Source: Mycobacterium sp.
GTDB taxonomy: Bacteria; Actinomycetota; Actinomycetes; Mycobacteriales; Mycobacteriaceae
NCBI GenBank assembly: GCA_964203005.1
Contig: CAXNKV010000001.1
Location: 102,712 to 166,711, forward strand
Reading direction: 5' to 3'
DNA: 64,000 nucleotides
The notes under the pieces were generated by a model. It saw nothing but the letters and a program-made list of their open reading frames with translations. It did no database searches and had not been told where the DNA came from. The translations under genes were made by a program, and so were the position numbers. Positions 37,118-40,160 of this stretch are shown in pieces (position 1 is the stretch's first letter; each line of letters starts with the position of its first letter).

Positions 37118-37765
37118 ATGGTCACGGTCTTTCTGGTTGACGACCACGAGGTCGTGCGCAGGGGCCTGATCGACCTGCTCAGCGCCGACCCCGAAGTCGA
37201 CGTGATCGGCGAGGCAGGCTCAGTGGCCCAGGCGATGGCCCAGATCCCCGCACTGCGCCCGGACGTCGCGGTGCTCGACGTTCGCCTGCCCGATGGCAAT
37301 GGCATCGAACTGTGCCGCGACCTACTGTCGAAAATGCCGGAACTCCGGTGCCTGGTGCTGACCTCGTTTACCTCCGATGAAGCGATGCTTGACGCGATCC
37401 TGGCCGGCGCCAGCGGTTACGTGGTCAAGGACATCAAGGGTATGGAACTGGCGAAGGCCATCAAGGACGTCGGCGCCGGACGCTCCCTACTGGACAACCG
37501 CGCGGCCGCAGCGTTGATGGCCCAGTTGCGCGGTGCCGCCGAAAGCTCCGATCCGCTCTCGGCGCTCACCGACCAGGAACGCGTGCTGTTGAATCTGCTC
37601 GGCGAAGGCCTGACCAACAGGCAGATTGCCGCCCGGATGTTCCTGGCCGAGAAAACGGTCAAGAACTATGTGTCTCGACTGCTGGCCAAACTCGGCATGG
37701 AACGTCGCACCCAGGCGGCGGTTTTCGTCTCCAAACTCGACCAACAACGAACGCGGGAGAACTGA
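37118..37765 (+). CDS. devR: NarL/LuxR-family response regulator, DevR/DosR orthologue
   Basis: 215 aa. [17 protein letters not shown]...[23 protein letters not shown]...[28 protein letters not shown] is co-linear and highly similar to M. tuberculosis DevR as I remember it, including the phospho-acceptor D54. Confidence 0.93.
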
Positions 37766-37792
37766 TTCGGTGGACAGGGTTCCGGAGGCCGC

Positions 37793-38329
37793 ATGAAGGG
37801 CATCATCTTCCACCTGCTCGAAAACGTGGTGGTTGACGCCTACGGCGAACCCACGTGGGACGAACTGCTCGATGCGGCCGGACTGGACGGCGTCTACACC
37901 TCGCTCGGCAGCTACGACGATGCGGAAATCATGGCACTGGTGTCGGCCGCCGCAGCCAAACTCTCGCTGCCGGAGGGCGAGGTGCTCCGATGGTTCGGAC
38001 AGCGGGCGATACCCGGTATGGCGAAACGCTGGCCCGAGTTTTTCACCACGCATCAGAAGACGATGCCGTTCCTGCTGTCGCTCAACGACGTCATCCACCC
38101 CGAGGTGCGCAAACTCTATTCCGGCGCCTACTGTCCCCATTTCGCGTTCACCTCGCCGCCGGACGGGTCACTGACGATTGGCTACCGCTCGCCGCGCCAG
38201 CTTTGCGACCTCGCCCACGGCTTCATCCTCGGCGCCGGCGACCACTACGGTGAGGCACTGGTGGTGCAACACCGGGAATGCATGCACGATGGCGCGGACA
38301 GTTGCCTGATCGCCGTGACAAAAGCCTAG
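37793..38329 (+). CDS. Stand-alone H-NOX (haem NO/O2-binding, HNOB) sensor protein
   Basis: 178 aa with GGAGG 4 nt upstream of the ATG. It begins MKGIIFHLLENVVVDAYGEPTWDELL and has a proximal-His context NDVIH102PEVRKLY, Pro115, the Y131-R-S133-P-R135 haem-propionate motif and a C-terminal CMHDGADSCLI. The pattern matches bacterial HnoX proteins. Confidence 0.85.
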   Translation: MKGIIFHLLENVVVDAYGEPTWDELLDAAGLDGVYTSLGSYDDAEIMALVSAAAAKLSLPEGEVLRWFGQRAIPGMAKRWPEFFTTHQKTMPFLLSLNDVIHPEVRKLYSGAYCPHFAFTSPPDGSLTIGYRSPRQLCDLAHGFILGAGDHYGEALVVQHRECMHDGADSCLIAVTKA

Positions 38330-38336
38330 GGCGGGA

Positions 38337-40160
38337 ATGGCTCCGAAACGCGAAAAGGTCCGCAGCCCAGCGGGTCTGGTCGCCGAACTGACAGCCGAGA
38401 ACAAACTGCTCGCCCGCCGGTTGGAGCGGGAGCGGAAGATCCGTCACGAGGCGGAGGACATCGCCGAACGCGGACTGCGCGACCTCTACCAGAAGCAACG
38501 CGATCTCGAGGTCCTCTTCACTATCACCATCATGGCCAACCAGTCCGATTCGGTCTCCGAGGTGCTTGCTTCCGCCCTGAAGTACATCTGCCACTTCACC
38601 GGGTGGCCCGCGGCGCACGCCTACATCATCAGCGGCGAAGGTGCTGACCGCCGGATGCGGCCGACCGGAATCTGGCATCACGGCCCAGGCCTGGATATCT
38701 CCGAATTGCGCTCCGCCACAGTGGAACTCGAATTCACCCCCGGGGTGGGCCTGCCGGGTCAGGTTTGGGAATCGGGCGCACCGGTCTGGTTTGACGACCT
38801 GGCTACATGCGACAACTTTCTGCGCAAGGACAGCGCCCTGCGGTCAGGGATGCGGATGGCGTTTAGCACCCCGATTCTGGTCAGATCCGAGGTTGTGGGG
38901 TCGCTGGAATTCTTCGGCGCCCACCCGATGCCCGAAGATGACGCCCTGCTGAGCCTGATAGCCAAGGCCAGCACCCAATTGGGCCGCACCATCGAGCGGG
39001 AGAGAAATGAGACCCTGCTCGCCGGAATCGCGATCGATAACGCCCGGCTCTACGAGCAGTCCCGCGAACGCCTGACCTGGATCGAAGCCACCCGTGATAT
39101 CGCCACCGAACTGTTGGGCGGCGACGAACCGGCCCGGGTATTCCAGCTCATCGCCGATTCGGCGTTGCGGTTGACCCAGGCGGATGCGGTGCTGGTGGCC
39201 GTGCCCAACAACACCGCGGTAGCCGCGTCCGAGGTGGACGAACTGGTGGTGGTCGGGTCGGCGGGTTCGGCTGGCACCGGCGCAGACGCCGCGCCGACCG
39301 GTCTGCCGGTCAGCATCTTCGGGGCTGTCCTGACCGATCGAACGCCTCGGCTGCTGCCGGCGCTCACCGATGCGCCGCCGATTCCCGGCGCGGGCCCGGC
39401 AATGGTGCTGCCGCTGCGAACGACCGAGACCGTTGCCGGCGTCGTGGTGGTCCAGAAGCGTCGAGGTGCCCCGGAGTTCACCGACGACCAGTTGCAGATC
39501 ATGGCGACTTTCACTGACCAGGCGACACTGGCCTGGCAGTTGGCCAACACCCAGCGCCGGATGCGCGAACTCGACGTGATCGCCGATCGCGAACGGATTG
39601 CGCGCGACCTGCACGACCACGTCATCCAGCGGCTGTTCGCTGCCGGCCTGTCGCTGCAGGGCGCCAGCCAGAGTGTCGGGTCGCCGCAGGTGCGGACGCG
39701 TCTGGACGATGTCGTCGATGAGTTGCAGGGCGTGATCCAGGAAATTCGAACGACGATCTTCGACCTGCACGGCGGATCCCAGGGAACCACCCGACTGCGC
39801 CAACGACTCGATCAGGCGATCGCGGCGTTTTCCGGATCTGGACTTCGTACCACCCTGCAGTTCATCGGCCCGCTTTCGGTGGTAGAGCCGCCACTCGCCG
39901 ACCATGCCGAGGCGGTGGTGCGCGAAGCAGTCAGCAATGTGGTGCGGCACGCGGGCGCTACCGCTCTCACCGTTACCGTGCGGGTCGAGGACGACTTCAG
40001 CATCGAGGTGCTTGACGACGGGTGCGGTATGCCCGCGATCGTGACGCCCAGTGGGCTGACCAATCTCCGCGTCCGCGCCGAGGAGGTCGACGGACATTTG
40101 ACCATCACCGAGGCGCCGGGTGGCGGAACACTCCTGCACTGGTGGGCTCCGCTGGTCTGA
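38337..40160 (+). CDS. DevS/DosT-like sensor histidine kinase (coiled coil-GAF-GAF-HisKA_3-HATPase) lacking the haem-type GAF-A
   Basis: 607 aa. From NARLYEQSRERLTWIEATRDIATELLGG onward it is co-linear with DevS (GAF-B, H-box RIARDLH426DHVIQRLF, ATPase GLTNLRVRAEE). The N-terminal 225 aa are a coiled coil plus an unrelated GAF (GLPGQVWESGAPVWFDD). Confidence 0.9.
   Translation: MAPKREKVRSPAGLVAELTAENKLLARRLERERKIRHEAEDIAERGLRDLYQKQRDLEVLFTITIMANQSDSVSEVLASALKYICHFTGWPAAHAYIISGEGADRRMRPTGIWHHGPGLDISELRSATVELEFTPGVGLPGQVWESGAPVWFDDLATCDNFLRKDSALRSGMRMAFSTPILVRSEVVGSLEFFGAHPMPEDDALLSLIAKASTQLGRTIERERNETLLAGIAIDNARLYEQSRERLTWIEATRDIATELLGGDEPARVFQLIADSALRLTQADAVLVAVPNNTAVAASEVDELVVVGSAGSAGTGADAAPTGLPVSIFGAVLTDRTPRLLPALTDAPPIPGAGPAMVLPLRTTETVAGVVVVQKRRGAPEFTDDQLQIMATFTDQATLAWQLANTQRRMRELDVIADRERIARDLHDHVIQRLFAAGLSLQGASQSVGSPQVRTRLDDVVDELQGVIQEIRTTIFDLHGGSQGTTRLRQRLDQAIAAFSGSGLRTTLQFIGPLSVVEPPLADHAEAVVREAVSNVVRHAGATALTVTVRVEDDFSIEVLDDGCGMPAIVTPSGLTNLRVRAEEVDGHLTITEAPGGGTLLHWWAPLV

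Follow-up and report, generated by a model that had tools for sequence, protein, structure and literature searches.

The DNA analysed here, hereafter the window, is a 64,000-nt stretch of a Mycobacterium sp. assembly (GCA_964203005.1, contig CAXNKV010000001.1, positions 102,712 to 166,711), and it carries a cluster of four genes that seems to join two known signalling systems. One is the DevS/DosT-DevR two-component system, the paradigm of dormancy control and of gas sensing by haem in mycobacteria, and the other is the H-NOX/HnoK pair, a model for nitric oxide (NO) sensing in Proteobacteria. Downstream of genes for a universal stress protein (USP) and a DevR/DosR orthologue, the cluster encodes a stand-alone H-NOX protein (gene hnoX) directly followed by a sensor kinase which, judged by sequence comparison, is a chimera: a DevS transmitter whose haem GAF-A domain has been replaced by an H-NOX partner module. 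We consider it likely, with a probability of about 75%, that these genes form a partner-switch two-component system that arose by domain swapping, in which H-NOX docks on the module and controls signalling from the kinase to DevR. Such a system would be a natural, so far undescribed rewiring of the DosR pathway. The genes and the segments of the kinase are the following:

36252..37088, + strand: tandem USP, first gene of the cluster (Pfam Usp in two stretches, E 8.7e-25)
37118..37765, + strand: DevR/DosR orthologue with REC and GerE/LuxR helix-turn-helix domains (Pfam Response_reg and GerE)
37793..38329, + strand: stand-alone H-NOX protein (HnoX), 178 aa (Pfam HNOB, PDB match, AlphaFold2 [AF2] model)
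38337..40160, + strand: chimeric sensor histidine kinase, 607 aa (Pfam GAF_2, GAF, HisKA_3 and HATPase_c)
38367..38543, + strand: kinase residues 11-69, a single long N-terminal helix (AF2; motif RRLERER..R.EAE.IAERGLRDLYQ)
38544..39011, + strand: kinase residues 70-225, GAF domain of the H-NOX-partner type in place of the DevS haem GAF-A (identity comparison, AF2)
39012..39056, + strand: fusion junction, residues ~226-240, inside the connector helix (identity switch, low model confidence)
39057..40160, + strand: DevS-derived transmitter with GAF-B, HisKA_3 dimerization and histidine phosphotransfer (DHp) domain and ATP-binding domain (PDB matches, Foldseek, motifs)

The gene positions, the shared orientation and the gaps of 29, 27 and 7 nt (the last between hnoX and the kinase gene) agree between the list of open reading frames and an earlier interpretation of this DNA made from its letters alone (the sequence-only reading). 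A Shine-Dalgarno sequence, GGAGG, precedes the H-NOX start codon, and the true start of the USP gene is probably the ATG at 36255 because sibling contigs call a protein of 277 aa. The USP-devR-hnoX-kinase operon recurs in ten of the loci that we compared (L001-L004, L015, L018 and the sibling contigs L081-L084), which excludes a chance juxtaposition; the USP gene is kept 5' of devR in L001-L004 and L015.

The 178-aa protein is confirmed as an H-NOX domain with a full predicted haem pocket and zinc site, both by its sequence and by its modelled structure. Residues 2-160 match the Pfam HNOB profile (PF07700) from end to end (positions 1-163 of 163; E 5.7e-38) with a score of 130.8 bits versus a curated cut-off of 25.5. 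The AF2 model (predicted local distance difference test [pLDDT] 82, predicted TM-score [pTM] 0.80) resembles Shewanella oneidensis H-NOX 4u9b with a TM-score of 0.84 (Foldseek, E 7e-16), and its top 47 Foldseek matches in the PDB are all H-NOX domains. The best solved relative by sequence is S. oneidensis H-NOX as well (PDB 4u99, E 2e-35), as expected from the likeness to Shewanella-type HnoX noted in the sequence-only reading, and homologues already bear the NCBI name 'heme NO-binding domain-containing protein'. The signature residues that had been recognized at the numbering of Thermoanaerobacter (Tt) H-NOX, i.e., H102, P115, Y131, S133, and R135, are indeed present at those numbers, are invariant in 12 diverse homologues (alignment A1) and align to S. 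oneidensis H103, P116, Y132, S134, and R136. Equally invariant in these 12 homologues are the Cys3His residues C138, H160, C163, and C171, which align to the S. oneidensis zinc ligands C139, H161, C164, and C172 (PMC7108781). The distal pocket is apolar, with L9, A72, and L140 at the positions of Tt W9/N74/Y140 (in a numbering that agrees with the PDB alignment spans), and S. oneidensis H-NOX has L9/L73/C141 at the same places. Because this apolar pocket lacks the hydrogen-bond network of Tt H-NOX, its residues suggest an NO-selective protein that does not bind O2. Overall identity is 55-57% to homologues from Caulobacteraceae, ~36% to S. oneidensis H-NOX, and ~24% to Tt H-NOX.

The kinase had been described as DevS-like, and this holds for its GAF-B, HisKA_3, and ATPase domains but fails for its first 225 residues. 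In a sliding-window comparison, residues 1-225 are only 4-34% identical to canonical mycobacterial DevS proteins and 40-70% identical to the segments encoded 3' of hnoX in other phyla, while from residue ~228 onwards the kinase is 60-84% identical to DevS and ~10% identical to hnoX-adjacent modules. At the junction, ...QLGRTIERERNETLL gives way to AGIAIDNARLYEQSR..., i.e., the module ends in ERNETLL immediately before the DevS-type sequence begins. The haem of DevS is held in the N-terminal GAF-A by the proximal ligand H149 in the motif HPPMR. This proximal histidine is missing from the window kinase, in which the sequence RSGMRMAFSTP corresponds to the DevS motif NHPPMRTFLGVP. A PDB search with the full kinase retrieved the ATP-binding domain of DevS (3zxo, E 1e-42) and GAF-B of Mycobacterium smegmatis DevS (2vjw, E 2e-31) but no match to the haem GAF-A of DevS or DosT; residues 1-262 searched alone reach the GAF-A structures of these proteins (2vzw, 2w3d) only at E 0.02-0.9.

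The predicted structure of the kinase follows the same division. In the AF2 model of the whole protein (pLDDT 78), a 59-residue helix formed by residues 11-69, which is absent from canonical DevS, leads into a GAF domain at residues 73-225 (pLDDT ~90), followed by a long connector helix, GAF-B, the DHp domain with His426, and the catalytic domain. Confidence in the connector drops below pLDDT 50 at residues 227-239, right at the junction, and Foldseek matches the downstream part to the DevS GAF-B and DosS ATPase domains (TMt 0.85-0.89). With the H-box RDLHDH (His426), the N-box residue N534, and the G1 motif DDGCG all intact, the kinase appears catalytically competent by its motifs.

The helix+GAF module is tied to hnoX far beyond mycobacteria. 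We surveyed H-NOX relatives using one genome per species (438 relatives, of which 80 loci were fetched), and in 74 of these 80 loci, which span Actinomycetota, Proteobacteria, and Acidobacteria, the gene directly 3' of hnoX starts with the module. For 77 such proteins (the window kinase and 76 from the loci; ten analysed with Pfam and all classified with probes) we tallied the output that follows: GGDEF-EAL in 42, a hybrid kinase with REC/Hpt in ten, HisKA-HATPase in nine, PP2C/SpoIIE with or without PAS in seven, a DevS-type GAF-B-HisKA_3 core in another seven (the window, L001-L004, L015, and L018), with two unresolved. The DevS-type cases all come from assemblies of Mycobacteriaceae/Actinomycetota, among which L004 bears a Bifidobacterium label, and devR lies directly 5' of hnoX in six out of six with upstream DNA available. 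The linkage of hnoX to devR and a kinase is conserved across mycobacterial loci, and together with the HNOB match, the fold, and the haem-pocket residues it gives a positive outcome for each computational check suggested in the sequence-only reading. Regarding L004 (CAMCWJ010000075.1), this contig was deposited as part of a 'Bifidobacterium breve' metagenome-assembled genome, and it carries a mycobacterial USP-devR-hnoX-chimeric kinase operon whose DevR and H-NOX are 91% and 79% identical to those of the window; its label is probably a binning or labelling error.

Sampling in the opposite direction gave the same picture. When 1.84 billion representative proteins were searched for the module, 276 matched at E <= 1e-30. 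Among six of the listed matches that were looked up, an HNOB gene was found immediately upstream in five out of five with an N-terminal module and not in the control, a GAF-GAF-SpoIIE protein without the helix. A word-indexed search with the 225-aa module alone returned only nine short matches and was uninformative. Distances between H-NOX proteins correlate with those between modules (r = 0.74), and the two trees are largely congruent. Within them, the actinobacterial hnoX-module pairs form one clade beside a proteobacterial pair, and this position suggests that the hnoX+module unit was acquired and that its outputs were shuffled afterwards.

In an alignment of 43 modules drawn from several phyla, R31, R36, E40, E44, N68, P179, E191, F192, and R221 are invariant, and conservation is strongest in the N-terminal helix and the surface-type motifs LEFF and QLGR.IERE. 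Of 75 modules sampled across phyla, 88% keep C85 (38589-38591) and 80% keep H94 (38616-38618). These two residues belong to the first strands of the GAF domain, where they could form a ligand or metal site or could have a purely structural role. In other environmental Mycobacteriaceae (L005-L022) we observed paralogous hnoX-module pairs with GGDEF-EAL or (PAS-)PP2C outputs, so that H-NOX signalling extends beyond the DevR pathway in this lineage.

The fusion to the DevS transmitter is itself widespread. Full-length chimeras 62-100% identical to the window kinase fall into ~45 clusters at 90% identity, and those with genomic context come from environmental Mycobacteriaceae; the next-ranked proteins are canonical DevS that cover only 72-78% of the query. 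In L015 (6546-8342) and L018 (997-2793) the junction, ...RTRLLSS followed by YAQTRARQAWIEATRDI, is shorter by seven alignment positions, i.e., one heptad of the connector helix, so that there were either two separate fusions or a single one with a later deletion that preserved the register. Compared with the window, these loci have 87% identity in the USP and 95% in DevR, versus 73% in H-NOX and ~60-70% in the kinase, a pattern suggestive of mosaic evolution or of a fusion that arose independently in this group.

Downstream of the kinase, the assignment of the regulator as a DevR/DosR orthologue stands on firm ground: residues 1-211 align to M. tuberculosis DevR 3c3w with 383 bits (E 2.4e-114), and the alignment shows D8, D9, D54, T82, and K104 as well as the DNA-contact residues K179, K182, and N183 retained. 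NCBIfam holds no DevR model, and this protein stays below the cut-offs of the MadR and NarL models.

Taken together, we propose that H-NOX, as a soluble sensor predicted to bind haem and zinc, would dock on the helix+GAF module of the kinase and change its state either when NO binds the haem or when the zinc-site cysteines are oxidized. By way of the connector helix and GAF-B, this change would reach the HisKA_3/ATPase core, altering autophosphorylation of His426 and subsequent phosphotransfer to Asp54 of DevR, which would then control the USP, nitroreductase, and other DosR-type genes. The sequence data show the gene order, the domain identities, the chimeric origin of the kinase and its breakpoint, the loss of the DevS haem ligand, and the linkage of hnoX with the module across phyla; that H-NOX binds the kinase, which signal it reports and with what sign, and which genes form the regulon are what we infer here. 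The docking step is proposed because of the gene linkage, the co-divergence, the matched loss of the haem site from the kinase, and the precedent of known H-NOX/HnoK systems. In particular, because the kinase has exchanged the DevS GAF-A for an H-NOX partner module, a functional connection between H-NOX and kinase is much likelier than adjacency alone would make it. In Shewanella, the region of HnoK that binds H-NOX was reportedly located in its N-terminal domain (Rao et al. 2017). Partner-switch regulation of this kind is established for H-NOX/HnoK pairs (PMC8846402, PMC8738867).

What the H-NOX protein senses is less clear than what it talks to. The sequence-only reading had proposed NO or carbon monoxide (CO), and the apolar distal pocket does suggest NO, but the closest characterized relative, H-NOX of Caulobacter crescentus, regulates its kinase upon thiol oxidation and not upon NO binding (PMC12329717). 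The same architecture might therefore respond to oxidative stress at the Cys3His site instead of NO or CO, such that oxidants would switch a DosR-type regulon, an alternative that we take seriously while giving it less than even odds. In its favour are the invariant C138, H160, C163, and C171, the placement of Mycobacterium sp. H-NOX together with Caulobacter in group 3 of the published sequence similarity network (SSN; PMC7108781, PMC8738867), of which groups 2 and 3 hold the zinc-site H-NOX proteins (PMC7108781), and the greater similarity of the window protein to Caulobacteraceae homologues than to S. oneidensis H-NOX. In Caulobacter, oxidation of the zinc-site cysteines inhibits HnoK, and the Fe(II)-NO form does not (PMC12329717). 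Conversely, the whole haem pocket is invariant across the family, which argues for selection on haem chemistry, and the NO-bound form is the inhibitor in Shewanella and Vibrio (PMC8846402). The two signals are not mutually exclusive, and by analogy with these systems an input of NO, oxidants, or both is plausible.

Another possibility, which we regard as unlikely, is that a small molecule binds directly to the helix+GAF module as its ligand, which would leave H-NOX with no more than an accessory, modulating role or with targets elsewhere. Small-ligand binding is common among GAF domains, C85 and H94 are widely kept, and the confidently modelled GAF-A fold resembles the tandem GAF domains of cyclic-nucleotide phosphodiesterases and phytochromes. 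Yet the module lies directly 3' of hnoX when sampled from either direction and co-diverges with H-NOX, its strongest conservation falls on the N-terminal helix, LEFF, and QLGR.IERE with no obvious pocket, and it has no significant sequence match to any ligand-bound GAF. We see still less reason to assume that H-NOX is a Tt-type O2 sensor that took over hypoxia sensing from the lost DevS haem. Given that DevS and DosT respond to O2, such a like-for-like replacement would be the simplest substitution, and the haem-pocket numbering is that of Tt H-NOX; however, the W9/N74/Y140 network is replaced by L9/A72/L140 as in the NO-selective H-NOX of S. oneidensis, and the low identity to Tt H-NOX speaks against it as well. 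Finally, the idea that hnoX is a passenger of a chance or neutral insertion without functional link to the kinase or DevR has next to nothing to recommend it: hnoX-like genes do look horizontally acquired because their nearest non-actinobacterial relatives are proteobacterial, but the insertion came with a matching swap of the kinase sensor domain for an H-NOX partner module, the arrangement is kept where H-NOX is only 72-79% identical (L004, L015, and L018), and the two genes are just 7 nt apart.

Returning to the partner-switch model, several points weigh against it. The contact between H-NOX and the module is deduced from gene linkage, and the partial conservation of C85 and H94 leaves room for a ligand of the module's own. 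H-NOX of Caulobacter forms a normal five-coordinate NO complex, and this Fe(II)-NO form does not regulate HnoK (PMC12329717). No H-NOX protein of Gram-positive bacteria has been reported as characterized (PMC7108781, PMC8738867), and the sign of regulation cannot be predicted. At the DNA level, footprinting 5' of the USP gene revealed no canonical DosR box upstream of the operon, and a scan of the window for the 20-bp DosR consensus TTSGGGACTWWAGTCCCSAA found no site with at least 15 of 20 matching positions, with counts no better than in shuffled sequences. The 64-kb window, the sole region checked, holds no second DevS-type kinase. Should these genomes lack any second haem-GAF DevS/DosT, direct O2 sensing would have been lost from the pathway. 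A bolder version of the model, to which we would commit only tentatively and at well below even odds, sees the helix+GAF module as a portable, as yet unnamed H-NOX receiver domain that sets the output and, in a lineage of environmental mycobacteria, has displaced the DevS haem-GAF, possibly twice given the two types of junction, so that the DosR regulon would now take its input from NO and/or oxidants via a zinc-thiolate H-NOX instead of from O2, NO, or CO bound directly by the kinase. If true, both the sensor and the signal would have changed in the textbook DosR pathway.

The genes around the operon are of the DosR-regulon type. They include one for an Acg-type nitroreductase, one for a trehalose phosphatase, and a further USP gene, and two of them are preceded by candidate regulator sites:

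41540..41553, + strand: DosR-box-like core GGGACATTGGTCAC, upstream of the USP gene at 40566-41456 (- strand), one mismatch to GGGAC-N4-GTCCC
43860..43873, + strand: DosR-box-like core GAGACGTAAGTCCC, ~40 bp upstream of the Acg-type nitroreductase gene at 42815-43822 (- strand)

The first core has a near-identical counterpart upstream of the orthologous USP gene in the divergent L015, and the second, which also has one mismatch to GGGAC-N4-GTCCC, is identical at the orthologous place in L015 and L081. The number of such cores in the window is not above chance (three observed versus 7.4 expected), and we regard the two positionally conserved ones as suggestive only. A consensus scan of 35600-41700 for promoters and terminators likewise found nothing above chance.

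The segment of 1,037 bp at 40553-41589, which includes the USP gene 40566-41456 (- strand) together with the DosR-like core upstream of it, is absent from the sibling contigs L081-L084 that are otherwise 97-98% identical. In these siblings, a single gene encodes a 532-aa DUF4267-trehalose-phosphatase protein that the 1,037-bp insertion has split here into a DUF4267 gene (40120/40183-40569) and a phosphatase gene (41601-42818), with no flanking direct repeats around the segment.

Upstream of the cluster lies the gene for FAS-I on the opposite strand, and the sibling contigs that we examined have the same operon adjoining fas. Several elements between these genes caught our attention. A block GTCGAC(A/G)TC(G/A)ACC at 36220-36240, ~25-45 nt 5' of the USP start and not a DosR box, is kept in six out of six orthologous loci, including L003 and L004 despite their differing sequence farther upstream. 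The fas/USP intergenic region also contains a perfect 24-nt palindrome, AAAACCTACTTTTGAGTAGGTTTT, at 36049-36072, a possible operator of either fas or the USP-devR operon. The fas-adjacent loci L001, L002, and L015 largely retain this palindrome, with the right arm differing at one or two outer positions in the first two, and L003 and L004 lack it. About 70 nt 5' of the USP start, a GC-rich 14-bp stem with a 10-nt loop (36146-36183; dG -35.9 kcal/mol, z -5.4) is kept in L015 with a compensatory change of C-G to T-A. Rfam returned for this leader region only a sub-threshold match to F6 small RNA (24.8 bits versus a gathering score of 46).

The window has a G+C content of ~66%, and its close relatives are all Mycobacteriaceae, mostly known from metagenome-assembled genomes. 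The host organism is abundant in metagenomes, with the exact H-NOX protein found in 375 sample blocks of a metagenome collection.

As to novelty, we searched the literature on H-NOX or HNOB together with DevS, DosR, or mycobacteria and found neither this operon nor a DevS without haem GAF described. The expectation that an H-NOX gene inside a devR-devS operon would be new is thus borne out for the operon and not for the gene itself: the Yukl laboratory had already noted Mycobacteriaceae sequences in passing in H-NOX SSN group 3, and their neighbourhood summary names no GAF, HisKA_3, or GerE partners (PMC7108781, PMC8738867). Among H-NOX pathways of Gram-positive lineages, this would be the first whose transcriptional output, the DevR regulon, can be predicted. 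No structure of any H-NOX-partner complex exists (PMC8738867), and the compact helix+GAF module as a likely H-NOX docking unit provides a defined target for the question of partner recognition. The fusion further implies that a foreign sensor module can drive the DevS transmitter via its connector helix, a finding of use both to studies of how DevS transmits signals and to the engineering of chimeric sensors. More generally, it suggests that among environmental mycobacteria the input of the dormancy regulon is open to evolutionary change.

Among known systems, the closest in gene order is DevS/DosT-DevR of M. tuberculosis and M. smegmatis, which shares the USP-devR-kinase arrangement. The window DevR keeps all phospho-acceptor and DNA-contact residues, the GAF-B, HisKA_3, and ATP-binding domains of the kinase are 60-84% identical to mycobacterial DevS, and genes for a USP, an Acg-type nitroreductase, and a trehalose phosphatase are found near the window operon too. 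The window system differs by a separate H-NOX gene between devR and the kinase gene and by a kinase that has a 59-residue helix and an unrelated GAF instead of the haem GAF-A. In M. smegmatis, the devR-devS interval does not hold hnoX but fsq (MSMEG_5243) and a diacylglycerol acyltransferase gene (MSMEG_5242). We had considered MSMEG_5243 as an hnoX counterpart and rejected it given that it encodes the flavin-sequestering protein Fsq, with MSMEG_5242 encoding the acyltransferase.

The HnoK systems of S. oneidensis, Vibrio cholerae, and C. crescentus share with the window a stand-alone H-NOX gene directly 5' of the gene for a cytoplasmic kinase, which in these organisms is bound and regulated by H-NOX. 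The zinc Cys3His site of S. oneidensis H-NOX is kept in the window protein (PMC7108781), and the Caulobacteraceae partners in L056 and L066 have the same N-terminal helix+GAF module. In contrast to HnoK, the window transmitter is of the HisKA_3 (NarL/DevS) type with an additional GAF-B and not of the HisKA type, its cognate regulator is the DNA-binding DevR instead of cyclic di-GMP (c-di-GMP) enzymes or Hpt relays, and the host is an actinobacterium. The H-NOX-associated c-di-GMP enzymes (HaCE; Legionella Lpg1057, Shewanella woodyi SwDGC, and Dinoroseobacter Dgc1) follow a shared logic in which H-NOX controls an adjacent output enzyme (PMC8846402), and most relatives of the window H-NOX likewise precede a module with GGDEF-EAL output (42 of 77 partners, including paralogous pairs in other Mycobacteriaceae: L005-L010, L014, and L019); the output in the window is a kinase/transcription pathway and not c-di-GMP turnover. 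The window system thus lacks one feature of DevS, the haem GAF-A, and one feature of HnoK, the HisKA-type DHp domain, and has the others of both.

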